Part shown: positions 15,135 to 47,247 of the stretch, piece by piece | Numbering within the stretch: the first letter of the stretch is position 1 | How the letters are laid out: each line of letters begins with the position of its first letter | Assembly: GCA_963737265.1 (NCBI GenBank) | Contig: CAVTRY010000011.1 | Location: forward strand, 64,001-128,000 | DNA: 64,000 nucleotides | From: an uncultured delta proteobacterium | Lineage (GTDB): Bacteria > Myxococcota_A > Polyangia > Fen-1088 | Reading direction: 5' to 3' | Made by a program: the position numbers and the translations under genes | Notes under the pieces: model-generated | What the model saw: only the letters and a program-made list of their open reading frames with translations | What the model was told of the DNA's origin: nothing | Databases searched by the model: none

Positions 15135-15857
15135 TGCAGCCGATTCGCACCGCCGCCGACGGGGCTCGCACGCTTGAATCCATTCTGGTCAAGCAGCTCA
15201 TTCAGGATAGCGGCGCCTTTCGCGGCATGAGCCAGGCAGGCGGAAAGATCTACGGCGAAATGTTTTGTGAAGCGCTGGCGAATGCTGTCTCGCAAAGCGG
15301 CGGGGTTGGCATCGCCAAGCTGGTCGAGGGCTCGTTCGAAAAGGGCGCGACAGCGGCGCAAAGTGGGCCTAGCGAGGCCAGCGTCACGGGTGACTTTCTC
15401 TTCCATCCTGCGACCCAACCGGCGGCCAGCGCCGCCAACGCCACGGACGTGACGCCAGAGGTGTTCGAGCGGTTTCGGCGCACGAAAGGACCCCATCGAC
15501 GGTTCCCATCGTTTTCATACTGGCATCGACGTCGCCGCGCAGGAAGGAAGTCCGATTCTGGCCGCTGCGCCCGGCGTCGTGCTCCGAGCTGGGCGGCGCG
15601 GTGGGTACGGTAACGCGGTCGAAATCGACAATGGCAACGGAATTTCGACCCTTTATGGGCACGCATCGGCGCTTTCGGTGAAAGAGGGCGACCGCGTCAA
15701 GGCGGGCCAGCCCATTGCCGCGGTCGGACATAGCGGGCGCGCCACAGGACCGCACTTGCACTTTGAAGTTCGAAAAGACGGAAATCCGACAGATCCGCAA
15801 TCGACCCTTAATAGGTGGGAAGAACGTGCCGACGTACTGATTGGTAGGAAACCCTAA
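15134..15857 (+). CDS. flgJ: FlgJ rod-binding domain fused to an M23 peptidase; +1 frameshift near 15464 in this sequence
   Basis: N-terminal LESILVKQL..IYGEMF..GGVGIAK (rod-binding); the +1 frame gives SSGFGARKDPIDGSHRFHTGIDV..GGYGN..YGH..TGPHLHFEV (M23 HxxxD and HxH). Confidence 0.8.
15808..15835 (+). promoter_or_regulatory. Putative sigma-28 promoter of flgM-flgN-flgK-flgL
   Basis: TTAA-N16-GCCGACGT inside the 3' end of the M23 gene. Confidence 0.6.
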
Positions 15858-15878
15858 CGAAGGCATTGGAGACAAGCC

Positions 15879-16178
15879 ATGAGGGTCGACAACAAACAAT
15901 CAGTAACGAGTACGGATACGGGGCAGGCTAGGTCAACCACCGGGCGGACGCCGATTCGACCGCAGACCGACACGGTCAGTGTCGACGGGGCCAAACAGGT
16001 TGCAGCTGTGGTGCAAGCCGTGCAGGCCAACGCCGGGGTTGACCGCAACAGTCGCCTGGAGGAATTGGAAACCGCGATCCGCCAAGGTGGATACCAGCCT
16101 GACGCGGGGCAGTTGGCGGACAAGATCATGCAAGCCGCGGAGCTGGACGCGCACCTGCGTGCCATTTTTGGAGGATAG
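15879..16178 (+). CDS. flgM: Anti-sigma-28 factor FlgM
   Basis: DTVSV..RNSRLEELETAIRQGGYQPDAGQLADKI. Confidence 0.88.
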   Translation: MRVDNKQSVTSTDTGQARSTTGRTPIRPQTDTVSVDGAKQVAAVVQAVQANAGVDRNSRLEELETAIRQGGYQPDAGQLADKIMQAAELDAHLRAIFGG

Positions 16179-16181
16179 TCG

Positions 16182-16658
16182 ATGGACCCACTCGAACAGA
16201 CCCTGGACGTTGCTACCTGGATGCGCGATGCGATCCAGGCCGAGCTGGAGGCGGCGCGCGAGCAGCGCGTGCTGGTTCGCAAGCTCGACGTGCAGGGGTT
16301 GTTCGAGCGCGCCCGTCGGCGAGGCGAATTCAATGTGAAACTGGCCGAATTGCAAGACGCATTGGGGGCGGCATTGTCCGCGGTGGCCGCAGATCTTGGC
16401 GTGGCCAAAGTGTCGATGGATATTCTGCATGAGTCGGACACCAAGCTGGCCGGACGAGTCGCGCAGGCGTTGTCCGAATTGCGCGCGTCGGCTCAGGCGC
16501 TGCAAGAGATCGATTCGCTCAACCAAGTTCTGTCCCGGCGGGCGCTGGCATGCGTGCGTGGCTACCTGGCTGCCCTATCGCCACGGGCGGATGTCTACGA
16601 CCGGTACGGGGTCATCCACAGTGGCGGCGCGGCGTCGCTTGCTCGTCGGGTGGCCTGA
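16182..16658 (+). CDS. flgN: Export chaperone FlgN
   Basis: Helical, LQEIDSLNQVL..YDRYG; between flgM and flgK. Confidence 0.8.
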   Translation: MDPLEQTLDVATWMRDAIQAELEAAREQRVLVRKLDVQGLFERARRRGEFNVKLAELQDALGAALSAVAADLGVAKVSMDILHESDTKLAGRVAQALSELRASAQALQEIDSLNQVLSRRALACVRGYLAALSPRADVYDRYGVIHSGGAASLARRVA

Positions 16659-16661
16659 GCC

Positions 16662-27493: not shown

Positions 27494-28270
27494 TCACTTC
27501 GCAATCGCATCCAAATTGTCCGTTGCGCGAACCTCGACCACGAGATCGATGCGGCGGTTGAGCTCGCGCCCGCCCGGTGTGTCGTTGGTGGCTATGGGGC
27601 GACTGTCGGCGTATCCGGCGGCGCTTAGAAGGTTGCTTGGGATGCGGTGAGCACGTTCGAGGTAGCTGGTTACCGACGCCGCGCGCGAGGACGAAAGGTC
27701 CCAATTGTCGCGAAAACGCGCGCCGATTACCAGTGTGTCGTCGGTGTGACCCTCGATGCGGATGGGGCGGCGCAGCCGCGCGAGCTCGTCGGCAACGACA
27801 TCGAGCACTGGGATGACCTCCGGTCGAAGAGCGGCTTGCATGGGATCGAAAAAGTGAGCCACGGACAACCGCACCATCAGCTTGCGTCCGTCAATGTGCA
27901 GGGTGACCGCCGTGGTCATGCCCGGCTTCTCCACCAGGAAGCCTTTGAACTTCTTTTCCATCCGGCGACGCATGGCCTCGATGGCCTCCACTTGCTTTTG
28001 CGAGGGCTTCTCGGAGTCGGAGAGATTGGCCATGCAGCCACCTTCACTGGCTGGGCCATCGAAGATGGGCATGGTGTCCACGCCGCCCTCGCCCTTGAAG
28101 TGCATAGCGAACTTGATCGACTTCATAACGTCGATCATGCGCTTGTTGTCAATTCTGCTGGTCGAATAGAGAACGACAAAAAAGGCGAAAAGAAGGGTGA
28201 TGAAGTCGGCATAGGAAACCAGCCAGCGTTCGTGATTTTCATGGTCTTCGTGTGTTTCGCGCTTGGCCAA
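27494..28270 (-). CDS. motB: Stator protein MotB
   Basis: ERWLVSYADFITLLFAFFVVLY; OmpA-like EGHTD, NWDLS, NRRID. Confidence 0.96.
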   Translation of the reverse strand: MAKRETHEDHENHERWLVSYADFITLLFAFFVVLYSTSRIDNKRMIDVMKSIKFAMHFKGEGGVDTMPIFDGPASEGGCMANLSDSEKPSQKQVEAIEAMRRRMEKKFKGFLVEKPGMTTAVTLHIDGRKLMVRLSVAHFFDPMQAALRPEVIPVLDVVADELARLRRPIRIEGHTDDTLVIGARFRDNWDLSSSRAASVTSYLERAHRIPSNLLSAAGYADSRPIATNDTPGGRELNRRIDLVVEVRATDNLDAIAK

Positions 28271-28273
28271 GGG

Positions 28274-29044: not shown

Positions 29045-29047
29045 CAG

Positions 29048-29257
29048 CTATTCCTTTCCTGGAACGACCACGGGCCCTTGGCAGATCTTGCGGCGGTATT
29101 CGACCACGTGGGCGACGACGTCCTCGACGCTGTCCTTGACCAAAATATGGTGTCCTGTCGTGAGAGTCAGCATTGTGTCGGGCGTCTTCTCCACCGTCGC
29201 AATCAACTCGGCGTTGACGACAACCTCGCTTCCGTCCAGGCGAATCAGTGGAATCAT
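29048..29257 (-). CDS. flbD: FlbD/SwrD family flagellar protein
   Basis: MIPLIRLDGSEVVVNAELIATVEKTPDT; between flgE and motA. Confidence 0.9.
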   Translation of the reverse strand: MIPLIRLDGSEVVVNAELIATVEKTPDTMLTLTTGHHILVKDSVEDVVAHVVEYRRKICQGPVVVPGKE

Positions 29258-31407: not shown

Positions 31408-34400
31408 TCATGCGGTGACGTGAATGTGTCGGTCGGCCGCGGCGTGATTCTTGGGCGAGGAAGCTGCGGAACGAAGGGTGGCGACGGGCGAATGCGTGTC
31501 CCGCTCCGTGATGCTGGGGTTGCTCTGGCCCTGCTGGCTTTGTTGCCCGGGCTGGCCGTTGTGTTGGTCCGTGGCGAAACTGCCCAGGGTTAGTCCCTCG
31601 CCGGCCAACACGGTGCGGACCTCGGGCGCCTTTGCCTCGAAAAGGGGTGACATCGTTCCGGTTACGTTGACGTCGGTGTTTCCGTCGCGCACGCGAACGT
31701 GGAGCGCGAGATCGCCGCTATTTGAGGCGATGGCAAGGTGGGCGGCATGCGGTAACACGGTGACGGAGAGACCTGGATCGTTGGCCACCCTGTCGACTAA
31801 TCCGGCTGCGTCTGGGGTAAGGACAGGCGGTGTCCAGGCGTCAGTCGAGGGCCTGGCGCTTGCAGGTATTGCCAGCGCCGGTTGTGTCGGGAAGAGCGCG
31901 GGGCGGTCTGCAGGGTTGGGCAGAGAGGGCGGCGTGTTGGTCGCCTGGGTGGTAGATGCTGGCTGGGTTTCGTGTCTCGCCGGAGAATCCTCTTCGCTGG
32001 GGTTCAGGCGGTCGGGCGGCTGCAATGAATCGACTTTCGGGGGCGGAAGGCGGTCGGGAATCTCGGGCGGGGCTGGCGTCGCAGGGTGTACCGTGGGACT
32101 TGCCGCCGCTTGCCCGGCAGAGGAGTTCGCGACTTTCGCCGTGGCGGCCCCCTCATCCTTCCGCTTGCTGCCGCGCGGGGCTGGTGTGGCTGCGCCTGCG
32201 CTTTGGGCGTGCGAGTGGTTCGGGGCGGGCTCTGGTGGGGGCGCCGGCGCCGTGGAAGCGGCTTTTCCGGCTGGGTCTGCGGTCCTTGTGGCGCTGGTCC
32301 CTTCCGCCTCAAGATCGTCGGTCGCCTCGCGGCGGCGGGCGGGCAGGCCCGGCTCGTCCACCGTCGTTGTGGTCGTACGCGTAGGTGCAGGCGCGCTCCT
32401 TGGCCGGACTACGGTGGTGGAAGGAGGCGCGGTTTTGCGCGGGGAGGCCGTGTCCTTTGTGGTTGAAGGAGAGCTAGCGATCGGCTCGGGAGAGAGTACT
32501 GGCGGCTCGAACGGGCGAGGCGCCCTCTGCTGAACCCGTTATCGTCGAGGAGGGCCGTTGGTGTTGCCGAGGCTGGCGACGAGCAGGCGCCGGGGCTGCG
32601 GCTGAGGCGGTTTCGGGCGCGGGCGCCGGGACTGAAGCTGTTCCGTGCGCGGGTGTTGGAACGGAAGCGGTTTCGTGTGCGGGCGCTGGGACTGAAGCTG
32701 TTCCGTGCTCAGGCGCCTTGACGGGAGTTGTGCCGTGGGCGGGCGCCGGGGCTGCGGCTGTTCCCTGCGCGGGTGCTGGAACGGATGCGGTTTCGTGCGC
32801 GGGCGCGGGGCCTGGAGCTGTGTCGTGCGCGGGCGCCGGGCCTGAAGCTGTGTGGAGCGCGGGTGTTGGGACGGAAGCGGAGCTGGGTGCGGGCGCTTGG
32901 CGGGTGTCGCTAGCGCGTGGTGTTACGTTCATCGGGCTCTGTGTCGCCGCGCTTCGGGGCGGCGTCGACATCGGGATGACAATTGGGTTCGACTTGGCCC
33001 CGGTAGCGGGTGTTGGCCGTGCGACGTTTTGAGGCTGCTTTTCGCCAATCGGAGCGGGATGGTCCTTTTGCGAAGAGGGGTCGGCGTGGTGAGACTCGGG
33101 TGACGCCTCCGTGCGCGGAAGGGGCTTTGCCGAGCCTGGCTGTCTCATTCCCGGCGACGCGCCTGGAATGAAGAGCTCGGTCTCGTGCGCTTTCACCACA
33201 GGAGCGGATGTCGCCATCGGACGCTTACTCTGTGGCTGCTGAGTCCTCTGCGCGTCTCCGAGTGGGCCGCTCTGTTCTCGCAGCGTGGACGCCGATTGTG
33301 GCGGGCCCTCCGGCTCGGGAGATTTCGCTGTCGGCATCTCAGGGCTGGCAGCCCGTGGTGAAAGTCTCCGCGTCGCCGCTCGGGTGGATTCTGGGCCGTC
33401 TGCTGCGTCTCCGCTCGCTTGAATACCTCTAGTATTCGGCGCTTCGCTGCTCCTTGCATCCGGCCCGAATCCACTCCGGGCGGCTCGGTCCGAGTTCCAC
33501 CACGGGCTGCCAGCCGAGGCCGCCTTCGCAGGATGAAAATTATCGCGCGATGTATGCGCCAACTGCGCACCGGGGCGAGTCTCGTGAGTAGCCGCCGCGG
33601 CCGGGTCGTAAGCGGCCGTCTCGAGCGACGGTCGGGTCGTCCCATGCGGGTTCGGTGTGTCCCCGGGCGTTTGGGGAAGGTTGTCGTCGTTGTGGAGTGG
33701 ACGTGCGGACGATCGAGCTGATTGTGGCGCTTGTGGTTCTTGGCGTGGCGGAAGGTAAGTCGGTCGTGGCGCTGCCACAGTGACTTTGGACCTCGCATCC
33801 TGGGTGTCGTGGGTCCTACTGTCAGTCGCGATGTGGGGTACCGTGGTGGTGCGAGTGTGTTCCGGAAGCTGCGGGGCGGTTGCCGGGGTGACCGGGAGGG
33901 CGTTGCCCACCGGCGAAGACGGCGCATGGTCGCCTTCCACGCGCGCTGGCGCTTCGTGGCTTTGCGCACGGGATTCCAGCTCAGGACGTGCATGAGCGCT
34001 CTCGGGGGTCTCGGCGCGGCTATGGGCGGTTTCATTGGGCGCGGGACTCGCGCCAGGTCGAGATACTGGAGCGTCGGCCCGTGACGTCGGACCGAGATGA
34101 TTGTCCGGGCCGTTCTTCTGATCTGCGGCGGTGTCGCGTGCCTCGGCGCCCGCAGTGGGCGGGTTCTTGGCCGGCGGCGCGTCGTGGCTGGTCGCACTCG
34201 ACAGCGCAGTCAAGTCAGCCTTGTTTTCAAGGACCGGCGCGGAAGGAATTGACCGTGCATCAGCCGAAACAGTCGCCCGGATCGTGTCGCGCGCGCTCGC
34301 ACCCGCGGTGGCAACAGGTGCCTCGTGGCTCGGCGGTTCCGCCGAGACGCGGACGGGATCTGGCTCGTTCTTGGTGTCGCCGTGGATCCGTGGCGTGTCC

Positions 34401-34846
34401 CCGTCGGCTCGCTCTTCGCGCGCCTCGTGTGCGGCCGCCAATCGCTGGGTGGGCGGCGGTTGAATTTCGGCTTGTTTGGCCGGTTCCAGCATCCGTGACA
34501 CCGCGGCCGCTTGCTTGCCATCGCGGTCCGGGTCGTTGTGTGTGGGGGCATTTTTCGCGACCGGATGGTCCGGTGCCGCCCTTTCTTCGGCGTGGGAATC
34601 TTCTTGGGAGAGCAGGTGGGACGCCACCGGTTTCTGTTCCGTGCCGGTGGACGTGGTCAGGTGGTCGTTCGTCGTCAGCGTGTGCTGCTCGTTGGTGATC
34701 TCACCCAGGACTTGGGCAAATCTTGCCGACCGGGTGTCAATATTGCCGTGTTCCGCACGCGAACCTGCGCGGGCGCGAGCGTTGGCCAGTGCCGCGGCGC
34801 CGTGGTCGCCCACGTGAAAGTTCGTCGTCGCACGCTGCGTGCTCAC
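31408..34846 (-). CDS. fliK: Very long hook-length control protein FliK (about 1145 aa); +1 frameshift near 32510 in this sequence
   Basis: P/A/T-rich low-complexity region, C-terminal GDLALHVRVRDG..PEVRTVLAGEGLTL then Q-rich tail; directly upstream of flgD; GTG overlaps the upstream stop. Confidence 0.7.
32585..32885 (-). repeat. About 10 imperfect 30-bp tandem repeats encoding PAPAH(E/G)TASV in fliK
   Basis: TASGPAPAHDTAPGPAPAHETASVPAPAQGTAAAPAPAHG.. in the translation. Confidence 0.85.
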
Positions 34847-35803
34847 TTCGGCGGTCCCTTCTTGTCCTTGGCGTAGATTGGTTTCCGGATCGCGATTTCG
34901 GTGGCCAGATCGGCCGCCAACTCCGGCTTGATAAGGCCGAGCACTGCGCCAGCGTCGACGGCCTTCATCCTGCGCAGGATCTCCGCCGCCAAAGCACGAT
35001 CGAGTCGCGTGATGACCGCCGCGGCTTGCTCGGGCTTCATCCCTTTCATCGCCTTGGATACGGAATCGATCTGCTCGTTGGTGGCTTCGCGCAGCGCCGA
35101 CGCCGGGAGCGACGTCGACGGAAGCAGCGGCTCGCCGATGGGCATGTTGCCGCCGCCGATATTGCAATTTCCGGCCGCCCTCAGCAGGGCTTCCAATCGC
35201 GCGGTTTCCTGGCGCAAGGCCTCGCGGGCTTTGTCGATATCCGCGATCTGGTCGGTGTGACCGTGCTCGAACGGACGGGCTCGCGTTGTCGCTGGGAAGC
35301 TGCGGTCCCTTCGCGAGTTGATTGCGAAGAGCGGCCAAGGTCAGTCCGGGCGGAACCACCGCGGCGTAGCGGTCGGCCGACCACGCGTTCTTGCGGTCGG
35401 CCGGATCGTCTCGGTCATAGTGATCGACACGATCGGTTCGATCAGGAATCGCGACCCTGCGTGCTCCGCGTTTGCGGGCACGAATCTTGGCAGGAGACTC
35501 GGCAATAACTTCCTCCTCGGGCGGGATCGCGGTGGCCCGCGTTTCTTCAATTTTGGGCGGACTCTTGGTGCTCTTTTCCGCCGGGACGGGCGTGGCCGTC
35601 TTGGTGGCGCTGGGTGAGGCGGCGAGCTTGGGCGACTTGGGCTCGCTGGGCTTTCCCACCGTCGGTGAGGTTGGTGCCTTGGGGCCGGCGACGATGGGTG
35701 ATGCCGGTGTGTCGGCATCGCGTCCGTGGGGCGGCGGAGACAGCGGATCCGTCTGCGTTGCCGCAGCCAGAACTAGCCAAAGCGTGATGGCGAGACTAGG
35801 CAC
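34843..35803 (-). CDS. MotE/YlxF-like flagellar protein with signal peptide; +1 frameshift near 35270 in this sequence
   Basis: C-terminal KAMKGMKPEQAAAVI..AEILRRMK..AGAVLGLIKPELAA (MotE/MgtE-N like); N-terminal signal PSLAITLWLVLAAA; between fliI and fliK. Confidence 0.7.
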
Positions 35804-37151
35804 GTCGTTCCTCCTGTTTGGGAACAGCTGCAAGGGGCTTGCCATCGAGTGCCTTGTGGAGGCGTGTCAGCGTTTCGGCGAGTGTGAATCGTTCGTTCGG
35901 CTCCTGGCACAGGAAGGCGTTGAGCTCGTTGATGCAGCGAAGAGCGGCGTCCACGCGCGGATTGGTACCGCTGACATACGCGCCGACCTCGACCAAATCG
36001 GCGGCGTCTTTGTAGGCCGAAAGCACATCGCGCACCCGGCGCGCGAGCGCGCGGTGATCGGGTGTCACCACGTCGTTCATCACGCGGCTGACGCTGCCGA
36101 GGATGTCGACGGCGGGGAAGTGGCCCGCCATGGCCAGGTTGCGGCTGAGCACGATGTGGCCGTCGAGACAGGCGCGCGAGGCATCGACCACGGGATCGGT
36201 TAGATCGTCGCCCTCGGCGAGCACGGTGTACATGGCGGTGATGCTGCCTTTTCCCTCGCTGTTGCCGGCCCGCTCAACGAGGCGGGGCAACATGGCGAAC
36301 ACCGACGGGGGATAGCCGCGCGAGGTGGGCGGCTCGCCCGCGGCCAGACCGATTTCACGTTGGGCCATGGCCACGCGGGAGAGAGAATCGATGAGCAAGA
36401 GCACGCGCTTACCCTGATCGCGAAAGAATTCCGCCACCGCCGTGGCGGCCATACCGGCGCGCACGCGCACGAGCGGCGATTCGTCGCCAGTTGCCACGAC
36501 AACCACCGAACGCGCGAGACCGTTGCCGAGATCGCGCTCGACGAATTCGCGCACTTCGCGGCCGCGCTCGCCCACTAGCCCGACCACGATCACGTCGGCG
36601 TCCGCGCTGCGCGCGAGCATGCCGAGAAGGACGCTCTTGCCGATGCCGGGACCGGCCATGATGCCAAGGCGCTGGCCCTCGCCGCAGGTCAAACAGGAAT
36701 CGATGGAACGTATGCCGAGCACCAGCGGGCGAGTGATGCGTCGACGGGTCATGGCCCGCGGCGCCGCGGCGTGAATCGGCACGCGCGCGTCGAGAATAAG
36801 GCCGCCGCGGTCGTCGAGCGGCTCCATGGCGGCGTTCACCACGCGCCCAAGCAGCCGCGTGCCCACCGTGATTTCACCGGCGCTGGCGCGCGGAATGACG
36901 GGACAACCTTCGCCGATTCCCTTCACATCGCCAAAGGGCATGAGAATGGCATTCGAGCCCGAAAAGCCGACGACCTCGGCGGCGATGGTCTGTCCGCCGG
37001 CGATGCGTATCTCGCACGAGCTTCCCACCGCCACTTGCGGCAGCACGGCTTCGACCACGATGCCGGACGCGCGCGTGACCTTTCCGGCCAAGACACACGA
37101 CTGGGCTTCGGCAAGCGAGCGTTTGAAGGCGGCGAGATTGACCAGGCTCAT
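35796..37151 (-). CDS. fliI: Flagellar export ATPase FliI
   Basis: GPGIGKS, GERGREVREF, DSLSR..AQREIGLAAGEPP..GYPPSVF. Confidence 0.96.
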   Translation of the reverse strand: MSLVNLAAFKRSLAEAQSCVLAGKVTRASGIVVEAVLPQVAVGSSCEIRIAGGQTIAAEVVGFSGSNAILMPFGDVKGIGEGCPVIPRASAGEITVGTRLLGRVVNAAMEPLDDRGGLILDARVPIHAAAPRAMTRRRITRPLVLGIRSIDSCLTCGEGQRLGIMAGPGIGKSVLLGMLARSADADVIVVGLVGERGREVREFVERDLGNGLARSVVVVATGDESPLVRVRAGMAATAVAEFFRDQGKRVLLLIDSLSRVAMAQREIGLAAGEPPTSRGYPPSVFAMLPRLVERAGNSEGKGSITAMYTVLAEGDDLTDPVVDASRACLDGHIVLSRNLAMAGHFPAVDILGSVSRVMNDVVTPDHRALARRVRDVLSAYKDAADLVEVGAYVSGTNPRVDAALRCINELNAFLCQEPNERFTLAETLTRLHKALDGKPLAAVPKQEERRA

Positions 37152-37795
37152 TGTGCGTCCTCCCAGGCGCCGGTTTCGAGTACCCGGCGCAGCTCTTCGA
37201 TGCGCGCGTTGATGCGGCCATCGACCGTGACGAGATCTCCCTCGACCAGGCAGTCGCCGCGACTCAAGGAAGCGTCGGGAACGATCTCGACGCGCGAAAT
37301 GGCGGCGGCGACGACGGCCTGAGGGCCGCGACTTTCGATGACGGAGTTCATGCTGCGCGCGTCGTCGGGAGAGAGGTGAATCGCGATCCGGCGCGATTCG
37401 CCCAGGCGCTTCACAGCCGAGCGCACCAGGTTGACCAGAGGCTCGGCGCTCGCGGAAAGCTCCATCTCGAGAATGCGCCGAGCGACCAGGAAGCCAATCT
37501 CGAGGGCGTCGGTGCGTGCTTCTGCGGCCAGTTTTTCCGCGGTGGCGCGCAGGACCTCGACCGCCGCGGCGGTGCGTTCGCTGAACTGGGCCGCCAACTT
37601 TTGCGCTTCGGCGATGGCGGCCGTCGCGGACTTGCTGTCGCTATCGTCCGCGTCGGCGAGCGCGCTCGCCATGATGGGCGGTCGGAAGCGTCCGTCGCCG
37701 CTGGGCTTGAAGGCAGCGCTCTCGACCCGTGCGCCGGCGCTCAGTTTGCCAAGGAAACTAGGGCGGCGAAGCGCCTGATTTTGCGTGGTCGCCAT
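37148..37795 (-). CDS. fliH: Flagellar assembly protein FliH
   Basis: IHLSPDD, DASLSRGDCLVE..VDGRI; between fliG and fliI. Confidence 0.88.
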   Translation of the reverse strand: MATTQNQALRRPSFLGKLSAGARVESAAFKPSGDGRFRPPIMASALADADDSDSKSATAAIAEAQKLAAQFSERTAAAVEVLRATAEKLAAEARTDALEIGFLVARRILEMELSASAEPLVNLVRSAVKRLGESRRIAIHLSPDDARSMNSVIESRGPQAVVAAAISRVEIVPDASLSRGDCLVEGDLVTVDGRINARIEELRRVLETGAWEDAQ

Positions 37796-37798
37796 GGG

Positions 37799-38821
37799 TT
37801 ACACCATCTTGTCCGTGGGGTTGACGATGGTGATGCGACCTTGTTCGGCGAGACCGAAGGCCACCTTCACCAACTCGGCCTGCGCGCCTTCGACGGCGGC
37901 CAGCTTGACCGGGCCCATGGCCTCGATTTCGTCTTCCAGCATCTGGCCCGCGCGTGACGACATGTTCTTGGTGAAGCGCAGTTTGATGGGGTCGGGCGCA
38001 CCCTTGAGCGCCGTGGATAGCTGGCTCATGTCGATTTCGCGAATGAGCGTCTGCATGTCGCGGTCGGTGAGGTTGATGAGGTCGCCGAAGGTGAAGAGCT
38101 TGCCCCGTAGCGAGGCGGCCAGCTCGGGGTCGTCCTTCTCGATTTCGCCGACGACCTCGGACTGTTGGGCCGCGGGAACCGCGCGCAGCAGCTCGACGGC
38201 AACGCCGCGACCGTCGACACGCCGGGTGTTGGCCGGCACCGACGCGGTCAGCTCGTCGCTGAGTCCTTGCCCAACCTGGCGTAGCACATCCGGCGCAACC
38301 GATTCGAGCATGGCCAAGCGGCGCACGATTTGGGGGCGCTGGTCGACGGGGATGTGTTTCAAGATCGACAGGGCACGCGCGCGGTCGAGAATGCCGAGCA
38401 CGACCGCCGCGGTCTGCGGCAGCTCCCGCGTGAGCAACATGGCCAAGGATTCGGGATCGGCCTCGGAGAGGGCGGCGAAGGTTTCAGTCACGGGCACCTC
38501 GGATTCAGCAGGCGTGTCGAATATGCGCTTGGCTACATCGAGACCCATGGCGCGCGCGGTGGCCTCGCGCAAAAGTCCATCGGCGCCGTAGGCGTCGGCG
38601 GAGACTCCTGACATGGCATTGACGAAGGCGTCCAAGGCGGCCGGGACGATCGAGGGATCGCGACGGAGGTCGCGGGCGCCGGCGGCGATGCGCTCGACGA
38701 TGTTCTCGTCGAGCGTCTTGAAGATTTGCGCCGCGACCTCTTGCCCGAGTCCAAGCAGGACCGCGGCTGCGCGCTGCGCTCCCGCGCCAGCAGAGAGCTC
38801 GACGAGAGCGCTATCGGCCAT
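37799..38821 (-). CDS. fliG: Motor switch protein FliG
   Basis: RAAAVLLGLG, ELPQTAAVVL, LFTFGDL, NMSSRA, MGPVK. Confidence 0.95.
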   Translation of the reverse strand: MADSALVELSAGAGAQRAAAVLLGLGQEVAAQIFKTLDENIVERIAAGARDLRRDPSIVPAALDAFVNAMSGVSADAYGADGLLREATARAMGLDVAKRIFDTPAESEVPVTETFAALSEADPESLAMLLTRELPQTAAVVLGILDRARALSILKHIPVDQRPQIVRRLAMLESVAPDVLRQVGQGLSDELTASVPANTRRVDGRGVAVELLRAVPAAQQSEVVGEIEKDDPELAASLRGKLFTFGDLINLTDRDMQTLIREIDMSQLSTALKGAPDPIKLRFTKNMSSRAGQMLEDEIEAMGPVKLAAVEGAQAELVKVAFGLAEQGRITIVNPTDKMV

Positions 38822-40391
38822 GACTCATCTCCTTGGTGCTGCCTCGTTGATTGGAGTCGGACTCGACCCAGGCGCGAAGCAATCCGGCGGCTTTGGCGGG
38901 ATCGGTCTTGCTCAATTCGCGCGCTTGCTCGCGCAACACGAGAGCGTCCGCGCGGCCCGCCACGGACGTCATGCCGCCCTCGGCGCGGTTGAGCAGCATC
39001 TGCACGTCACCCACCCGCGACCCAGGCTTGATCATGCTCAGCATGGACGTCATTCGGCGGTAGACCCGGAACACCAGCAGGATGCCGAAGAAGGCGAGAA
39101 CCCCCCATACGATCATGCGTCCCAGGCGCCAGAGATCCGCTCTGTCCCAGATGGGCATGGTGACCGTGCTCTCGTCGATCTTGGTGAAGGGGGCGCTGGA
39201 AATTTCGAACACGTCGCCGCGCTGGGCGTCGAAGCCAATGGCGTGCTTGGCGAGGTCTGAAAAGCGGCGGACGTCGGCCTCGCCGCGCGGTTTGCCCCCT
39301 ATGCCGTCGATCAGGACCGCCGCGGAAAGACGCAGAATCCGCGGCGTGCGGGTAATCGTGTGCGTGACCTTCTTGGTGATTTCGTAGTTGCGGACCTCGT
39401 CGTCGCGCGCGGTTTGCGACCGCGAGGAGCCGGAGCCGCCGCCCGGCACCGCCGCGATGGGTTGATTGGCCGCTGCGCCCGCAACACCCGCGCCAGTGGT
39501 GCCGTCGCTGTTGACGGTCTCGGTGGTCTTGTGCTCGCTGCGCACCGTGGCCGAGTCGGGATCGTAGTTGTCTTGGGTTGTTTCCACCTCGGTCGTATCC
39601 ACGGTGGCGGTGATCTTTGCGACGATCGACCCTCGGCCGAGCGCGGGTTCAAGCAGATCGGTGATGCGTTGTTCGAGCCCGGCCTCGATGTCCCGCTGTT
39701 CCTTGGCGATCTTGCCCGAACTCGACAAATCGCCCGACAGCACGGTTCCGCGCTGATCGACAACCGTTACGCTATCGGGATTGAGCCCGGCGACGGCGGA
39801 TGCGACCAGGTGGCGCACGCCCGCGAGCTCTCGATCCTGCATGGTCCTTCCCGGCTGCAGGTTGAGCACGACGGCCGCCGTGGCGTGGCGGTCATCGTCG
39901 CGGTAGAGCCCCTTTTCCGGCAGGGTCACGTGCACGCGCGCCGAACGCACCGCTTGCAATCGCGAAATCGTTCGAGCCAACTCGCCCTCGGTGGCTCGGC
40001 GCAGATTCACTCGCTGCGTGAACTCGGAAGCACCGAAATCGCCGCGGTCGAACAGCTCGAAACCAACGCCGCCTCCGCGCGGCAAGCCCTGCGCCGCGAG
40101 CATGAGGCGCGCTTCGTGGACTTGCGACGCTGGCACGGAGAGCGCACTGCCGCCGGCCTCGGCGCGGAACGAGATCCCGGCAGCCTTGAGCGCCGCCGCA
40201 GCGTCCGTGCTGTCCTCGGGCCCGAGGTTGGTGAAAGCGTATTGATAGGTCGAGCCGCTGCCAAACACCACGGCCACCACGGCAACGACGGTGGCCAGCG
40301 AGAGAACACCGGCCAGCAGCATTCGCGTTGCCGCGCTCAGTTCGGCGTAGCGTTTGCCGGCATCACGCATCGATTTGAGGATCGGTTCCAT
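38811..40391 (-). CDS. fliF: MS-ring protein FliF
   Basis: GFELFD, RATEGELARTI, ARVH, LVASAVAGL, NYEI, RLSAAVL. Confidence 0.96.
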   Translation of the reverse strand: MEPILKSMRDAGKRYAELSAATRMLLAGVLSLATVVAVVAVVFGSGSTYQYAFTNLGPEDSTDAAAALKAAGISFRAEAGGSALSVPASQVHEARLMLAAQGLPRGGGVGFELFDRGDFGASEFTQRVNLRRATEGELARTISRLQAVRSARVHVTLPEKGLYRDDDRHATAAVVLNLQPGRTMQDRELAGVRHLVASAVAGLNPDSVTVVDQRGTVLSGDLSSSGKIAKEQRDIEAGLEQRITDLLEPALGRGSIVAKITATVDTTEVETTQDNYDPDSATVRSEHKTTETVNSDGTTGAGVAGAAANQPIAAVPGGGSGSSRSQTARDDEVRNYEITKKVTHTITRTPRILRLSAAVLIDGIGGKPRGEADVRRFSDLAKHAIGFDAQRGDVFEISSAPFTKIDESTVTMPIWDRADLWRLGRMIVWGVLAFFGILLVFRVYRRMTSMLSMIKPGSRVGDVQMLLNRAEGGMTSVAGRADALVLREQARELSKTDPAKAAGLLRAWVESDSNQRGSTKEMSHGR

Positions 40392-40394
40392 GGT

Positions 40395-40730
40395 CTAGAT
40401 CCCCATCCGCATGATTTCGTTGTAGGTGTCGACGAGCTTGTTGCGCACGCGCATGGCCAGGCGCATGGCTACGTCGGCCTTTTCCAGCGCGAGAGCCATT
40501 TCGTGGATGTTGCCGGCGCCGTGGGCGACGGCGGTGGCCTGCGTGTCGGCAGCGACTTGCAGCTTGTCGATCTCACCAATCGCCTTGCCGAGCTCGCCGC
40601 TGAACTGTCCGGCGGTCGCGGCGTCGGGGTTGGCGATGCTTCGTTCGCTCCGGTCGGCTCGGTCGAGCTGGCCGATGCGGGACGAGCTGGTGTCGATACT
40701 GGCTTGGCCGCTGTCGATGCGCAGGTTCAT
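40395..40730 (-). CDS. fliE: Hook-basal body protein FliE
   Basis: IHEMALALEKA..VRNKLVDTYNEIMRM. Confidence 0.94.
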   Translation of the reverse strand: MNLRIDSGQASIDTSSSRIGQLDRADRSERSIANPDAATAGQFSGELGKAIGEIDKLQVAADTQATAVAHGAGNIHEMALALEKADVAMRLAMRVRNKLVDTYNEIMRMGI

Positions 40731-40733
40731 GGG

Positions 40734-41162
40734 CTACTTCGTGATGTCGAGGCCACGCGAGGCCATTTGCTTGAGGGTTTCCACCGCGGTGGCGTTGGCT
40801 TCGAAGGCGCGTGAGGCCGACAGCAGATTGACGATTTCGCTGATCGGGTTGACGTTGGGGAACGTTACGAACCCGTCGGCGTCGGCGTCAGGGTGGCTCG
40901 GGCTGTAGACCTTCTTGCCCTGGGATGGATCGGAAACGATTTGCGACACACGCACGCCGAGCGGCGATTGCCCGACGGTGGGCGCTTCGTCCTGGGCGCC
41001 GATGCGCATCGATTCGAAGACCGGATCGAGGCGCTGATAGGCCTTGCCGTTCGGGCCGCGCGTCGTCTCGGCGTTGGCCAGGTTGGAGGACGCTAGGTTG
41101 ACACGCGTTCGCTCCGCCGAAAGGGCCGAACCACTTACATGCAACGCTGTCAGAAAGTCCAT
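40734..41162 (-). CDS. flgC: Rod protein FlgC
   Basis: SSNLANAETTR, HPDADADGFV..PNVN, ASRAFEAN. Confidence 0.95.
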   Translation of the reverse strand: MDFLTALHVSGSALSAERTRVNLASSNLANAETTRGPNGKAYQRLDPVFESMRIGAQDEAPTVGQSPLGVRVSQIVSDPSQGKKVYSPSHPDADADGFVTFPNVNPISEIVNLLSASRAFEANATAVETLKQMASRGLDITK

Positions 41163-41203
41163 GGCTACCTACTTCCCGTCATAAGGTTCGTCATTTGCTC
41201 GCA

Positions 41204-41632
41204 TCATCCGTTTCCGTCCGAGGCCACGTATTTCAAGATCGCCAGCTTCTTCCCGGCGGCACGTGCGCTGGCGCCGTATTGCAAGGCGTTTTCGGCCATC
41301 GACACCATGGTTCGATCGAGGTCCACGGTGTTGCCGTCGAATGAGGCTCCGCCCGCGGGCACGTCCACGATGGGCAGGTCTCGGGCAGCGATGCCGCCGT
41401 TCGTGCCGTTCGATCCCGCCGTGCCTAGCGTGGGCTCGGTGGGAAGCGACACGCCGCCGCTCGACTGGGCGGTTCCTTCGATGGCGGCCATGGTCGCGGC
41501 GAAATCGACGTCCTTGGGTTTGAAGTTCGGCGTGTCGACGTTGGCCACGTCGGCTGCCAGCACGTTTTCGCGCACCAGACGAACGTCGAGGGAGCGTTCG
41601 AGTTGCGCCAAGGTGGAGTCGAAGATCTTCAT
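41204..41632 (-). CDS. flgB: Rod protein FlgB
   Basis: [31 protein letters not shown]. Confidence 0.94.
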
Positions 41633-42810
41633 GCTGCCGACTCCTCTTGCGATTCGCGTGCCACCTGCGTGGCACCCGTCATCGCGTCACGCCCGTGTCG
41701 CGGCAGAAGCTGCCCATCCGGTGCCAGAATTCCGGTTAGGCGCAGGGTCCGCACTTTGTTGCGCAAGGTGCGCAGGCTGATGCCGAGCAGTCGGGCCGCA
41801 TGGGTGCGATTTCCGCGCACGCGGCGAAGCGCCTCCAAGATTGCCATCTGCTCCAGCTCCGCCAATGCCAGTGGCAGCCCGGCCGGCATGGCGACCAGGA
41901 GACTTTCGTGGTCTTCGTTTGCCCTCGACGCGTCGTCATGCGCCAGCACATCCGCGCGCAGCGGGCGTTTGCAGGCCACGTCGCTTGCCGTTCCGCGAAT
42001 GGAGGCGATGCCCACGGCGGCCAGGGCAGCGGCGATGTGCCCGGCGGGCACCACCGTGCCATGGCAGCGAACCAGGGCGCGTTCGAGTACATTCGCCAGC
42101 TCGCGCACGTTGCCCGGAAAATCGTAAGCGAGGAGATTGGCGAGCGCCTCCGGGGCCAGGGTGGGCGCAGGCCGGCCGAGGCGCAGCGCGATTTCATCCG
42201 AAAGATAAGCGGCCAGCGCCGGGATGTCGGCGCGGTGCTGGCGCAAGGGTGGAAGAAAAATTGGGAAGACCGAGAGTCGGTAGTAAAGGTCGGCACGAAA
42301 TTGACCGCGCGCCACCATGGCGGCCAGGTCACGGTTCGACGTTGCGATGATGCGCACGTCGACCGGGATTGGCCGCGCGCCGCCTACGCGGTCGAGCTCG
42401 CGCTCCTGCAGCACGCGCAGAAGCTTGGCCTGCAGGGCAAGTGGCATCTCCGAAATCTCGTCGAGCAGAAGCGTGCCGCGGTCGGCTTGTTCGATACGGC
42501 CGAGGCGGCGGTCGGAGGCCCCGGTGAAGGAGCCCTTCTCGTGGCCAAAGAGCTCGCTTTCCAGCAACTCGCCGGGCAGGGCGGCGCAGTTGACGGCGAT
42601 CCACGGACCGGCGCTGCGCGGAGAGAGTCCGTGAATGTAGCGCGCGAAGACCTCTTTCCCGGTTCCGCTTTCGCCGAGCAGAAGCACGGTGGTGTTGGCG
42701 CGCGCGACGTCTTCGGCAGCGGCCAGCACGTCTTGCATGATCTGGGTTCCGCCGATGGGCGGCTCTGCGTCTGGCCGACGAGGGATCGGGAATGAAACGG
42801 CGTGGTTCAT
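41629..42810 (-). CDS. Sigma-54 enhancer-binding protein without an N-terminal regulatory domain (flagellar regulator)
   Basis: [34 protein letters not shown], Fis HTH; ATG overlaps the upstream stop (ATGA). Confidence 0.9.
41648..41663 (-). promoter_or_regulatory. Putative sigma-54 promoter of flgB
   Basis: Minus strand TGGCAC-GCGAA-TCGCA. Confidence 0.65.
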
Positions 42811-44180
42811 GGCGACTCCGAAGCATTGTTCTGGGACTGGCGGGCACGTAGGGATCGCGACATTGCGGTGTAGGCCGCGGCCAAGTCGCGTGCCGCCTGG
42901 GCGGCCTCGGCCTCGTCGGCTTGGATGCCGCCATGTCCGTCGACGCCCAAGGTGGCGGCGGCTACCGCGGCCCAGCGTGGTCCCGTCAGGCGCTTGCGAC
43001 CGATGCGGCCGTCGGCATATTCGTAAAGCGTGCGCGCGCGGGCTGAATCCTGGGCGACCAGATACATTTCCGCCGAGCGCAGCAGGTGGTCGCCGATGGC
43101 ATCGACATCCGTGCCCTCGACCCACGGCACGCTGGCAGCGAGCAGATTGCCCGCGAAGAGTGGCGCGCCGATGGCCAGACATTTTTCGGCGGCGGCGCGC
43201 ACCATCTCGATGGCGAGGAAGCCTTCGGTGCGACCGGGCAGCGCCATGTAGGCCTCAACGGTCTCGACCGCGCCGTCGAGGTCGGGGAACTTCAGCGCGA
43301 AGAGCACGAGGCGGCGACAGAGCACGCGGGTATCGTCGTCGCACACGCGGGGGTTGGCGCGCATGGCTTCGATGAGAGCCGACATGGAATCCTTGACTGC
43401 GCCGATGTAGGCGTGGGCGCGTGCTCCACGCAGCAGCATTTCGCTGTGGAGCGGCTCGGGCAGCAGAGTGGCGTCGAACACCCGCTTGCGCATCTCGCCG
43501 AGGCAACCGCCGCCCATTTCGCACAGGCGCGCGGTCGCCAAGCGGCCGTAGCTGCCGAAGCGACCCGCCATGCGGTACCAGCCCGCCGCCGTTGTCGCAT
43601 CTCCGGTGCGCAGCGAGATGTCGCCCAAGCGCAGGGAGGCCAAACGCCGGTATTCACCGGTCAGCGCCTTGCGGAATTCCAGCGCTGCTTCGGTGAAGCG
43701 TCCGGCCTTGAAATGGCACTCACCGCGCGCAGGCGTGGTATCGCCGGGGCAGGCGCTGCCGAAGTGAAGCGCGATGGGATGATAGAAGAACCAGATCTGG
43801 TCGCCGTCCTCGTGCAAGGGCAGCCCGCGGACCTCGTGAATTTCGAGCACCGGTTTGCCACCCGTCTGATCGAGCCTGGCTTCGATGCGCGGCGTCCGGC
43901 ACTGAAGGACGACGGTGTTTGGCTCGCGGTGGATGTACGGGCAAAGCTGCGGGTCGCTGGCGAGGAAGCGCTGTTGGATAGCGCGCGTGTCGGACGTCGT
44001 CGTCAAGTCGATGCGCATGGCCAACGAGTCCACCGACAGAACCACGCGGCTGATCGGAACCGCCAGGGGAAGCCGCTCAATGGCCGCCACCGTCGACACC
44101 CGCTCGCTCTCCGGACTGTCCGGCGAATCGCCAGAAGGAAAACCGCCAAGCGCGACGAGAAGGGTGACGAGCTGGAACAT
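42807..44180 (-). CDS. Exported TPR-like hypothetical protein
   Basis: Hydrophobic N-terminus, TPR-like helices ([23 protein letters not shown]), Cys-rich. Confidence 0.65.
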
Positions 44181-44195
44181 GCTGGTGTCGCCTTA

Positions 44196-44211
44196 TGCAG
44201 CCATCGTGCCG
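44196..44211 (-). promoter_or_regulatory. Putative sigma-54 promoter of the TPR-activator operon
   Basis: Minus strand CGGCAC-GATGG-CTGCA. Confidence 0.6.
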
Positions 44212-44446
44212 GTCGGCATTTCGAGGGACTGTCGGATCTTGCCCAGGCAGAAAAGGCCCAGTGTTCGCGCCGGTTCAGCTCCAGCATGGGCAGCCATTCG
44301 TTGCCTGCTTGATCCGTGCTGGCCAGGTTGGGTGTCAGGCCCGTGTCGCGCCGGAGCCGTCGCGCTGCTGGCGCGTCACCCCCCTGTCGCGGTGACGGCC
44401 TGCCCCAACACTGGTAGTCTTGCCGCCGAAAATGACAGGAGGACCC

Positions 44447-45235
44447 ATGGGCAAGTCAGGACAAACCGCTCTCATTACTGGCGCCTCGGCGGGACTCGGC
44501 CGCGAATTCGCCCGACTCGCCGCACGCGACGGACACGATTTGGTGCTAGTCGCCCGGCGGCTCTACCGCCTCGACGAGCTGGCCGGCGAGCTGACCGCTG
44601 CTCATGGTGTCGCGGTGCTCAGCGTGGCGGTTGACTTGGAAGACAAGACGGCGGCGCGGCAGATCGCAGAGCAAGTGCAGTCCGCCGGAATGACGATCGA
44701 TCTTCTGATCAACAACGCCGGCTTTGGCTCGCATGGAACCTTTGCGCGCTCGGAGCTCGGCCGCGAGCTTGGGATCATCGATGTGAACGTGCGGGTTTTG
44801 GTTGAGCTGACGCATCTCTTTTTGCCGGGAATGCTCGATCGCCGGCGCGGGCGCGTCTTGAACGTTGCCTCGGTGGCCGGGTTCGTGCCCGGCCCGTTCA
44901 TGGCCACCTACTACGCCAGCAAGGCGTTCGTTCTCAGCTTCACCGAAGCGCTGACCTACGAGTTACGCGGCACCGGCGTTACCGCGACGGCTGCCTGTCC
45001 CGGCCCTACCGCCACCGAATTTGGGACTGTAGCAAAAAGCGAGCGAACGAATCTCTTCCGCGGCGTTCCGGCCGATGCCGCCGCCGTTGCTCGCCACGGC
45101 TATCGGGCGATGCTGGCGGGCAAGGTTGTGGCCGTTCCGGGGATTAAGAACAAGCTCACCGCGCAATCGATCCGGGTTGGCCCGCGCGCGGTCGTGCGCA
45201 GGATCTCCGCCCACCTGAACCGGGTACCAAGCTAG
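44447..45235 (+). CDS. Short-chain dehydrogenase/reductase
   Basis: TGASAGLG, NNAG, YYASK; AGGAGG RBS. Confidence 0.92.
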   Translation: MGKSGQTALITGASAGLGREFARLAARDGHDLVLVARRLYRLDELAGELTAAHGVAVLSVAVDLEDKTAARQIAEQVQSAGMTIDLLINNAGFGSHGTFARSELGRELGIIDVNVRVLVELTHLFLPGMLDRRRGRVLNVASVAGFVPGPFMATYYASKAFVLSFTEALTYELRGTGVTATAACPGPTATEFGTVAKSERTNLFRGVPADAAAVARHGYRAMLAGKVVAVPGIKNKLTAQSIRVGPRAVVRRISAHLNRVPS

Positions 45236-45250
45236 CGGGCAGGGGATCCG

Positions 45251-46145
45251 CTACGGCTTCAACTTTGGCAGGGACGGAAACGACGTCGCCGGCAAGAGCA
45301 CGCGGACCGGCGGAATCTCGCCGCGCTTGCGTGCGCGGGCGATCCATTCGATGGCCACGCCCGAGGCAGGGGGATTGATCACGGTCGCCTTCAGTCGCCC
45401 CTCGCGAACCAGGCGCTGGCCGAAGGTTTGCGATCCGTCGCACCCCGTGATGGGGGCGCCGCCAACCGGCAGGTCGCTTCGGCTGTCAAAGTCGCGCAGT
45501 GCCTGTCGCACGCCCAAGGCCATTTCGTCGTTGTGGGCCACGACCATGACGGGCAAATCTTCCTGCGCCGTGATGCCGCTAACCCAGCGTTCGACCGCCA
45601 TGCGTGCGCCTTCCGCGGTCCAGTCGGCATTCAATTCGATGAGATCGAACTTGCTGCCGAGCGTCTGCTTCAAACCGTCCAGGCGCTTCAGCGCGGACAG
45701 ATTACGAAGGTTGCCCGTGACACACAAGACCCGACCGGCGGTGGCGATGAGAGTTGTAACCTGCTCGGCCTGGATTCGGCCAATTTCGATCTGGTCGCAG
45801 GTGACCGCGAAAACTGCCCGGTTGGGATGCCGGGCGCGTACCTCGTCGATAAAGCCTCCCTCGTTGAGCAGTGCCCACTCCAAGCCGGCCTCGGCGGCTT
45901 CGTGGGCGACAGGAGCCAGCTCCTCGTCGTGTACGCCACTGGCCAGAATCGCGACAAGGTTGGTGGCGGCGGCTGTCTTGATGGCCTCGCGAATCTGGGC
46001 GACCTGTTCGAGCGGCATCGAATTGTGCCGACTCCACCAGGATGTCGAATCCGTGTTTCTTCGCCTCGCGCAGACCGACTTCCTTCAGCCGCCGCTGATA
46101 GTCGTTGTCGATGCTGCGGAGAAACAACCCAATGGTACCCAACAT
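45251..46145 (-). CDS. RbsB/LacI-type sugar-binding-fold protein, no signal peptide; +1 frameshift near 46010
   Basis: IGLFLRSIDNDYQ.., DQIEIGRIQA, ADWT, AHNDEMALG, ITGCDG, LKATV. Confidence 0.75.
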
Positions 46146-46190
46146 CCGATCATTTTCGCACGAAAGCGGGCTCGTCGCCGATACAGTTCT

Positions 46191-47247
46191 TCAGCAGATC
46201 CTCGGCAATTGCTCGCCGCTGTGCATGTCGAGGATGCGCTTGGTGCCGATGCGGCTTTGCAGGGTGACCAAGGCGGCGGGCGATTCGGACACGGTGCCGA
46301 TGCGGACTGCGGTCGAGGAGACCGGGTGCTGTCGCAGGATTTGTAACGCGTGCTCGGCTTGCGCCGCCGGCACGAATGCCACGAAGCGACCTTCGTTGGC
46401 AAGGTAAAGCGGGTCGAGTCCGAGAATTTCGCACGCGCCGCAAACGTTCTCCTCGACGGCGATGTGGCGTTCCACGATGTCGATGTGAAGCCGGCTGGAC
46501 TCGGCGATTTCAATCAGGCTGGTGGCGAGGCCGCCGCGGGTTAGATCGCGCAGACAGTGGACTGGGATACGCGCGGCGAGCAGGTCAAGCACGGGATCGA
46601 CCAGCGGCGCGCAGTCGGTCTCGATGGTGGTTTCGAAACTGCAGGCCTTCACGCACGGCCATAATGGCCACGCCGTGGCGGCCGACGTCGCCGCTGAGCA
46701 GAATGGCGTCTCCCGGGCGCACGCTGGTGGGGGCAACGACAAGGTCGTGTTCGATGACTCCGATGCCGGCGGTGTTGACGAACAGCCCATCGCCCTTGCC
46801 CTTGTCCACGACCTTGGTGTCGCCGGTGACGATATTCACGCGCGCAGCCTGGGCGGTTCGGGCCATGGACGCCACGACCCGTTCAAGGGTTGCGATGGGC
46901 AGCCCTTCTTCCAAGATGAAACCGGCGCTAAGACACAGCGGCCGGGCACCACACATGGCCAGATCGTTGACCGTGCCTGTGACGGCCAGGGTGCCGATAT
47001 CGCCGCCCGGAAAAAACAGCGGGTGCACGACATAGGAATCGGTGGTGAAGGCCAGCCTGCCTTTGCCGGCGTCCATCACCGCACCGTCGTGACGCGATTC
47101 TAGGGGCTGGTTGCCCAAGGCGGGCAGAATGGTGCGTTCGAGCAGAGCGTGCATCATGCGCCCGCCGCCGCCATGGGCGAGAGTCACGAAGTCGCGCTGG
47201 GCGATGGGAACCGGGCAGCTTGCGGTGAAGGAAACTGGGTCGGCCAT
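46191..47247 (-). CDS. hypE: Hydrogenase maturation protein HypE; +1 frameshift near 46636 in this sequence
   Basis: [29 protein letters not shown]; second frame [17 protein letters not shown]-terminal PRIC. Confidence 0.92.

Follow-up and report, generated by a model that had tools for sequence, protein, structure and literature searches.

Frame breaks at one short motif in the genome of an uncultured soil bacterium are very probably assembly errors and may mark a strain-specific methylation site

Introduction

Five genes within a 64,000-nucleotide stretch of the genome of an uncultured soil bacterium (the window) read as sensible proteins only if one base is removed from each. Are these genes expressed by ribosomes that slip, have they been damaged by mutation, or is the extra base a product of sequencing? 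The original prediction linked all five breaks to a shared (G)TTCGA sequence and offered two readings, a long-read miscall at modified TCGA sites in intact genes, which it favored, and programmed +1 slippage. Here we weigh these readings against orthologues, independent contigs and motif counts across the genome.

Results

Frame breaks in the window

All five one-base breaks exist at the predicted coordinates, and the open frame upstream of each is continued in the +1 frame (Table 1). Domain searches placed Rod-binding and Peptidase_M23 of the flgJ-M23 gene in two different frames, as they did AIRS and AIRS_C of hypE; in the sugar-binding protein gene one frame only carried a domain match. A Pfam search with the fliK-like gene returned no match, and its name is that given in the original prediction. 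Coding-model scores at the flgJ and fliK sites (+4.9 and -6.8, respectively) were both under the threshold. The motif GTTCGAGC occurs 11 times in the window (7 copies on the forward strand, 4 on the reverse); four copies are breaks, one (9624) is uninformative and six are clearly intact, with a one-base deletion costing 23-37 units of coding score. This bears out the earlier remark that other copies, such as the one at 16301, lie in intact genes. As for the reading frame, an xxT-CGA zero frame is present at four of the five sites; in flgJ-M23 the motif is read GTG TTC GAG. The TTT-CGG proposed as the shift site of that gene was rejected, as it lies three codons downstream of the motif and two congeners put the extra base inside GTTCGAGC.

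Table 1. Broken genes and intact motif copies in the window
Feature	Position of gene (strand)	Sequence at site and position (strand)	Remarks
flgJ (rod-binding)-M23 peptidase gene	15131-15857 (+)	GTTCGAGC, 15463..15470 (+)	one T too many
fliK-like gene, long, low-complexity	about 34830-31408 (-)	GTTCGAGC, 32505..32512 (-)	
motE-like gene	35845-34843 (-)	GTTCGAGC, 35265..35272 (-)	FliG_M and MgtE_N matches in C part
sugar-binding protein gene	about 46145-45251 (-)	GTTCGAGC, 46006..46013 (+); coding strand GCTCGAAC	Peripla_BP_4
hypE	about 47250-46191 (-)	10-bp palindrome GTTTCGAAAC, 46630..46639 (-)	extra T/A in short run
intact copies		GTTCGAGC, 16301 (16301..16308 +), 25182, 39671, 39970, 47136, 63068	internal negative controls

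The extra base in independent contigs and orthologues

Contigs were available from a near-identical organism (X1; depth 3-5, possibly from the same sample as the assembly) and from relatives present at small shares of 0.07-0.08 (X2-X4), the latter used for length across the sites only. The single X1 contig that spans base 46007 lacks it (depth 4.8 of 4.8; 328 nt with 0 other letters differing), and so does an X3 contig. At the fliK site a 450-nt X1 contig covers 451 places (32163-32613) with 0 other differing letters and 1 gap within the span, and at the motE-like site contigs of relatives in X2 and X4 both fall one base short. Independent contigs of low depth thus lack the extra base at three sites, with base-level pinning by the near-identical contig at 46007 only, one site judged by X1 length and one by the length of the relatives' contigs. 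Because the X1 contigs without the base show no other change, we take the true sequence to be GTCGAGC with no substitution. A true CTCGAG miscalled as GTTCGAG would fit the proteins on paper, but was rejected because the X1 contig shows one deletion and no substitution.

Orthologues from the same genus read through the shift site of flgJ-M23, motE-like and hypE in a single frame, i.e. the site is unconserved. In 4 of 4 flgJ-M23 orthologues the M23 part shares one open frame with the stretch that precedes this site, and two congeners (G010 and G008) have GAGGTGT-CGAGCGG at this place, which is GTCGAGC without the extra base. All 5 hypE alignments are one base shorter in the congener, with the upstream and C parts in one frame. 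The motE-like orthologues are single frames of 315-348 codons in 7 of the 7 congener genomes with the locus, and the C-terminal match of the fliK-like gene falls inside one frame of 1033 codons in another congener (G006); at these last two sites the congener DNA is too divergent for placing the base.

Motif counts across the genome

Genome counts refer to informative sites only (418 of the 927 GTTCGAGC copies) because the coding model misses low-complexity genes. A one-base deletion restored the coding frame at 63 of the 418 sites, compared with a background of 0.6% and with 0-1% for near-identical motifs in the same test (GTTCGAGG 0/275, GTTCGAGA 2/172, GTTCGAGT 0/75, GTTCGACC 1/179, GTTCGACG 1/238 and GTTCGAA 1/316). 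The genome-wide enrichment at frameshifts that the original prediction called for is therefore present, but the motif is the 8-mer GTTCGAGC rather than (G)TTCGA: of the 64 N-TTCGA-NN contexts it alone showed a large excess (57/414), followed by TTTCGAAG (6/112) and CTTCGAGC (9/424). When every 7-mer was ranked, without bias, by +1 breaks, the first four places went to GTTCGAG, TTCGAGC, GCTCGAA and CTCGAAC. A TCGA-wide (TaqI-like) footprint was rejected, since TCGA overall had +1 breaks at 156 of 16,324 sites against a background of 0.66%, with one of 64 contexts strongly raised. Nor does hypE share the motif, as had been supposed; it lacks GTTCGAGC and has the weak context TTTCGAA, which was broken at 7 of 282 sites genome-wide after masking.

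The errors cluster on this one short motif in both orientations: 35 of the 63 events are sense and 28 antisense, the sense events are spread over the three phases as 21/1/13, and GTT-CGA is in frame in only 21 of the 63. When the 63 broken copies were compared by eye with the 355 intact copies, no position within 14 bases of flank differed, and a bipartite Type I motif was rejected on this ground. A search for a counterpart motif with a missing base (-1) gave as its top signal one repeat in 21 copies, which is not an error motif.

Specificity for this genome

The doubling was found at 61 of 418 GTTCGAGC sites in this genome, compared with 1 of 117 in four long-contig congeners (2.4 Mb) and 0 of 20 in many-contig congeners (347 kb); the Fisher p of 2e-6 is to be read with the caution that kin and assemblies are not independent, that parts of the congeners were sampled and that pipelines may differ. 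Expressed per true site the figures are 61/2,225 and 1/794, and the sole congener event is 7 bases away from one at CTCGAAG. The congeners are not simply cleaner assemblies because their overall +1 backgrounds resemble that of this genome.

Weak excesses of A-doubling at CTCGAAG were seen in two congeners (5/171 in G008 and 4/181 in G002). GATC served as a control for doubling at m6A, the genome having a Dam-family gene that passes the TIGR00571 cut-off; AGAATC was affected at 17 of 912 sites, which is not significant after correction for 2,188 contexts, while other flanks were at background (21/3,901), and scattered AGAATC events occurred in three congeners. At the XhoI site CTCGAG, the error reached about 1% in GCTCGAG and was absent from other flanks.

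Discussion

The breaks are very likely consensus errors of the assembly, and the genes affected are of an ordinary kind and most likely intact. A true GCTCGAC (GTCGAGC on the other strand) would be written as GCTCGAAC through doubling of the adenine after TCG; this would affect about 2.7% of GCTCGAC sites, or some 135 genomic positions, four of them in the window, with a similar doubling in TTCGAA accounting for hypE and no ribosome event involved. The assembly, with 25 contigs of up to 1.4 Mb, was presumably built from nanopore long reads. That part of the favored reading in the original prediction which called the breaks miscalls in intact genes is upheld by the independent contigs, the single-frame orthologues and the independence of strand and phase; the part that saw in them a methylated TCGA is upheld only partly, as TCGA at large is near background and the affected motif is GCTCGAC/GTCGAGC.

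As to what triggers the error, we favor as the probable cause a base modification particular to this strain, in the simplest case m6A. Our reasoning is that the doubling is nearly absent from the four long-contig congeners and that several adenine methyltransferases of this genome were not found there. We give about even odds to the doubled A being a trace of methylation at a strain-specific motif, GCTCG(m6A)C. The putative mark would be laid on the doubled A by one of several adenine methyltransferases encoded in the genome, the candidates being two fused restriction-modification-type proteins (994 and 911 aa), a BREX-2 PglX and, through off-target activity, a 563-aa Eco57I/TaqI_C methyltransferase adjoining an XhoI-family endonuclease (E 7e-75). 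None of these had a full-length match in five congeners, except for a 37%-identical PglX in G008, and the XhoI-linked enzyme had no match in G008 or G002. The m6A motifs of Type IIG/MmeI-like enzymes and BREX PglX have the A in the next-to-last place, a pattern that the error motif fits when read on either strand (GCTCG-A-C or GTCG-A-G). The error motif resembles the sites of such enzymes in being non-palindromic and 6-7 bp long, and enzymes of these kinds are encoded here; any pairing of enzyme and motif is a candidate one. BREX is described as methylating 6-bp non-palindromic motifs (PMC11341690). An MmeI-family enzyme with readable recognition residues was also sought, and only weak partial matches to the MmeI methyltransferase domain were found. 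In the full-text literature searched, no paper named GCTCG(m6A)C as a methylation motif, except that GTCGAG/CTCGAC is given as a site of off-target m5C.

There is precedent for strain-specific methylation motifs causing nanopore consensus errors (PMC11610573, PMC10687267, PMC11610603). Such errors resemble ours in affecting a short, strain-specific motif whichever way it runs, persisting in the consensus and vanishing in independent sequence (PMC11610573, PMC10687267, PMC11610603, PMC12506013). In Neisseria, 74.76% of erroneous indels were at or beside methylated bases, while indels in Salmonella were reportedly not linked to methylation (PMC12506013). The published errors differ in that they are mostly substitutions (PMC11610573, PMC10687267, PMC11610603, PMC12506013), whereas ours duplicates a single base, does so at about 2.7% of sites and is known from the assembly alone.

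It is possible, although we think it the lesser prospect, that a base-caller or polisher doubles the A in CTCGA without any methylation and did so more often here through depth or software version. A weakness of the base-caller for sequence context may explain part of the effect because low-level A-doubling is also seen in G008 and G002 at CTCGAAG and, as scattered events, in three congeners at AGAATC; just 2.7% of sites are affected, and beyond the 8-mer no flanking base stands out. Against this, 793 informative GCTCGAC sites are intact in the congeners and the one event there is the one beside CTCGAAG, even though congener +1 backgrounds are similar.

A sub-case of the modification that we favor, but an unlikely one, is off-target (star) methylation by the XhoI/PaeR7I-type system, whose specificity we take from the family name to be CTCGAG. 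This system is present and CTCGAG is the most avoided 6-mer of the genome (O/E 0.467); GTCGAG/CTCGAC is one mismatch away. A Halorubrum CTCGAG m5C enzyme is reported to act off-target on GTCGAG/CTCGAC, modifying 15.3% of these sites (PMC8112702). That precedent is a cytosine enzyme, however, and the error peaks at GCTCGAC while the canonical CTCGAG, the likeliest methylated site, has less error; moreover, a consensus should outvote partial methylation.

That the insertions are real mutations of the strain, through motif-directed mutagenesis or recent pseudogenisation, is very improbable. They are confined to this assembly, and near-identical contigs were seen over two of the five window sites, but the X1 contigs are otherwise identical to the window and lack the base, and the idea would require about 135 one-base insertions, all alike, with no other sign of decay.

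Programmed +1 frameshifting at GUU-CGA/UUU-CGA-like sites to yield full-length proteins has a negligible chance of being correct: although four window sites have an xxT-CGA zero frame, and PA-X-like sites (UCC_UUU_CGU) favor A-site CGN codons and work at about 1% (PMC3498833), this likeness is superficial, as the window sites are unconserved and untied to strand or phase (the motif is on the template strand in 28 of 63 events and in another phase in 14 more), the base is missing from independent contigs, and such efficiency would probably not suffice for genes of flagellar structure or hydrogenase maturation. Slippage can be dismissed at 46007 and, with high probability, at 32505, independent sequence without the extra base being the very finding that the original prediction had named as decisive against it.

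The five genes of the window are thus biologically ordinary, and about 135 sites in this public genome are falsely frameshifted (extrapolated from 14.6% of the 927 motif copies), so that no weight should be given to pseudogenes, split genes or recoding signals that this assembly seems to show at GTTCGAGC/GCTCGAAC. A by-product is a candidate methylation motif with a short list of enzymes. If the methylation reading is true, ranking k-mers at false frameshifts could recover methylation motifs from long-read assemblies already deposited, with no need of raw data, and the motifs could be paired with candidate enzymes.

Results

All five frame breaks lie at the motif positions originally predicted, and at each of them an open frame upstream is replaced by the +1 frame (see table). 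The proposed zero-frame codons were also correct in four of the genes, the exception being flgJ-M23, for which TTT CGG had been given; the zero frame at that site reads GTG TTC GAG and TTT CGG sits three codons further on. The window contains flagellar and hydrogenase-maturation genes. The assembly to which it belongs (G000, GCA_963737265.1; 6.55 Mb, 25 contigs, 63% G+C, listed completeness 99.5% and contamination 7.6%) has contigs of up to 1.4 Mb, which suggests that it was made from long reads.

Features discussed in the text (G000, assembly under study; G010, a congener; C, contigs; L, sequence stretches)
Feature	Location	Observation
flgJ-M23 break	window 15463 (+)	Pfam Rod-binding and Peptidase_M23 in different frames
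fliK-like break	window 32505-32512 (-)	GTT CGA; no Pfam match for either part
motE-like break	window 35265-35272 (-)	GTT CGA; C part matches FliG_M and MgtE_N
Sugar-binding gene break	window 46006 (+; gene -)	GCT CGA; C part is Peripla_BP_4
hypE break	window 46630-46639	TTT CGA; AIRS and AIRS_C in different frames
False 1123-aa ORF	window 32474-35845 (-)	motE N part joined to fliK N part by the two errors
flgJ-M23 orthologue	L181, G010:C23 ~171900	own break near codon 45-60
174-bp palindromic repeat	window 33342-33515	folds at ~-110 kcal/mol
Near-full palindrome copies	C13:365398; C15:45260; C21:89060	90-93%
Second copies, hypE region and neighbouring sequence	C20:26060-26489; 37840-38587	82% and 70% identity
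Dam-family gene	G000	
BREX type 2 PglX	L117, G000:C11 ~354000-357000	925 bits (curated cut-off 400)
C5 cytosine methyltransferase, then 350-aa protein	L011:1441-3740, G000:C17	weak ApaLI-like endonuclease match, below cut-off
XhoI-family endonuclease adjoining 563-aa Eco57I/TaqI_C methyltransferase	L027:508-3006, G000:C11 ~499154-501652	

With a dicodon model trained on approximately 1,800 long G000 ORFs, the top 7-mers at +1 breaks, among all 7-mers, were GTTCGAG, TTCGAGC, GCTCGAA and CTCGAAC. Such breaks accompanied GTTCGAGC in 24/108 cases on the coding strand and 17/175 on the opposite strand, against a background of 0.66%. In a direct test, where one base was deleted and all six frames were rescored, 63 of the 418 informative motif copies (those where the model can judge the deletion; 927 copies in total in G000) scored as events, and sibling motifs gave 0/275, 2/172, 0/75, 1/179, 1/238 and 1/316. 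Across the 64 N-TTCGA-NN contexts, a faster version of the test found GTTCGAGC alone strongly raised (57/414), with TTTCGAAG (6/112) and CTTCGAGC (9/424) weakly so. The predicted link between motif and breaks thus holds genome-wide for a motif narrower than (G)TTCGA, and hypE, which had been grouped with the other four genes, belongs to a different, weaker context.

Contigs from four sequencing runs (X1, near-identical to the window, and X2-X4, from relatives) were aligned to window 28001-47900, a range outside which flgJ falls. X1 contains a fraction of 0.44 of the words sampled from window 30501-40400 and may be the same as the source sample, its library type not being on record. We found that: (i) in the sugar-binding gene the sole X1 contig among the alignments listed (328 nt at a depth of 4.8, otherwise identical in sequence) omits base 46007, as does an X3 contig, while an X2 contig has only a compensated gap pair at 46011-46013; (ii) at the fliK site a 450-nt X1 contig covers 451 places with one gap, its exact place not listed, and no other letters; (iii) at the motE site the X2 and X4 contigs are each one base shorter, and in seven genomes the motE orthologue is one uninterrupted frame, 315-348 codons long; (iv) the flgJ site reads GAGGTGT-CGAGCGG in congeners G010 and G008, and 4/4 orthologues keep a single frame across it; and (v) congener alignments of hypE are one base shorter in 5/5. 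The G010 flgJ-M23 orthologue has a break of its own, upstream of and distinct from the window site. Taken together, the independent contigs and congener sequence indicate that the true word is GTCGAGC/GCTCGAC, in which one T (A) was doubled. The miscall that the original prediction favored is therefore borne out by the missing base in X1 and X3 and the single-frame orthologues, and the frameshifts are almost certainly not a feature of the organism.

Per true site, the error affected 61/2,225 copies of GCTCGAC, approximately 1% of GCTCGAG and 0.1% of GCTCGAT; other 5' bases showed no error above background. Informative GCTCGAAC copies carried an event in 1/117 cases in a 2.4-Mb sample of long-contig congeners (800 kb each of G008 and G002, 400 kb each of G001 and G010, from genomes of 6.4-7.3 Mb) and in 0/20 in 347 kb from five many-contig congeners. 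Set against 61/418 in G000 (p 2e-6, which is overstated since kin and pipelines are not independent), these counts show that the error is particular to the G000 assembly. The single congener event lies 7 bases away from a CTCGAAG event. By extrapolation some 135 G000 sites are falsely broken, a warning for users of the assembly; annotation tools would, for example, report a spurious motE-like/fliK-like fusion.

Discussion

We lean towards methylation as the trigger of the error. The doubled A, next-to-last in an asymmetric 7-mer, would fit m6A placed by an enzyme of the Type IIG or BREX kind. An asymmetric site with the modified A next-to-last is the pattern of such enzymes. BREX motifs are given as 6-bp and non-palindromic in one report (PMC11341690), and another describes a CTCGAG enzyme with off-target m5C methylation of GTCGAG/CTCGAC (PMC8112702). 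There is also precedent for errors of this kind: methylation-induced nanopore consensus errors are characterized, in passages of several papers, as strain-specific and motif-bound (PMC11610573, PMC10687267, PMC11610603), and sections of a further study place 74.76% of erroneous indels in Neisseria, and none in Salmonella, at or adjoining methylated bases (PMC12506013). The window breaks, known here from assembled sequence alone, behave like the errors in those accounts. We found no paper linking GCTCGAC or GTCGAGC to methylation, a motif that supplementary motif tables or REBASE could list; a search on CTCGAC/GTCGAG with REBASE found one paper. If methylation is responsible, a by-product is a testable methylation motif.

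G000 encodes many methyltransferases, including those in the table and fused restriction-modification-type proteins of 994 aa and 911 aa. Its most avoided 6-mer is CTCGAG (O/E 0.467), and GTGCAC has an O/E of 0.80. In five congeners (84-94% complete), four candidate methyltransferases had short domain matches only, barring a 37%-identical PglX in G008. A plain sequence-context error, with no methylation, is possible but in our view doubtful. Against methylation, weak A-doubling at CTCGAAG occurs in G008 (5/171) and G002 (4/181), both without a match to the XhoI-linked enzyme, and CTCGAG shows less error than its near-site. With GATC taken as a positive control for A-doubling at m6A in G000, AGAATC gave 17/912, which does not reach significance once 2,188 contexts are corrected for, and the remaining flanks gave 21/3,901, equal to background. 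Programmed +1 slippage, also put forward originally, is excluded because a ribosomal signal cannot ignore strand and phase: the motif was on the template strand in 28 of 63 events, the 35 sense events fell in all phases (GTT CGA 21, TTC GAG 13, third phase 1), and the sites are not conserved, in contrast to the PA-X frameshift site, described in part of one report as highly conserved with an efficiency of about 1% (PMC3498833).

Several repeats came to light. The 174-bp palindrome, with long terminal inverted repeats, is in frame within the low-complexity stretch of the fliK-like gene and resembles a small mobile palindrome that has entered a coding region; the copies on C13 and C15 are not crossed by an open frame, and copies at 87-94% occur in many congeners. 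The second copies on C20 come either from an additional hydrogenase cluster or from the contaminating fraction of the assembly. The top '-1' signal came from a repeat that recurs almost unchanged at 21 places on 12 G000 contigs (e.g. C11, C12, C14) and contains two genes overlapping by ATGA; it is probably a multicopy insertion sequence, and the overlap may be an IS21-type istA/istB junction.
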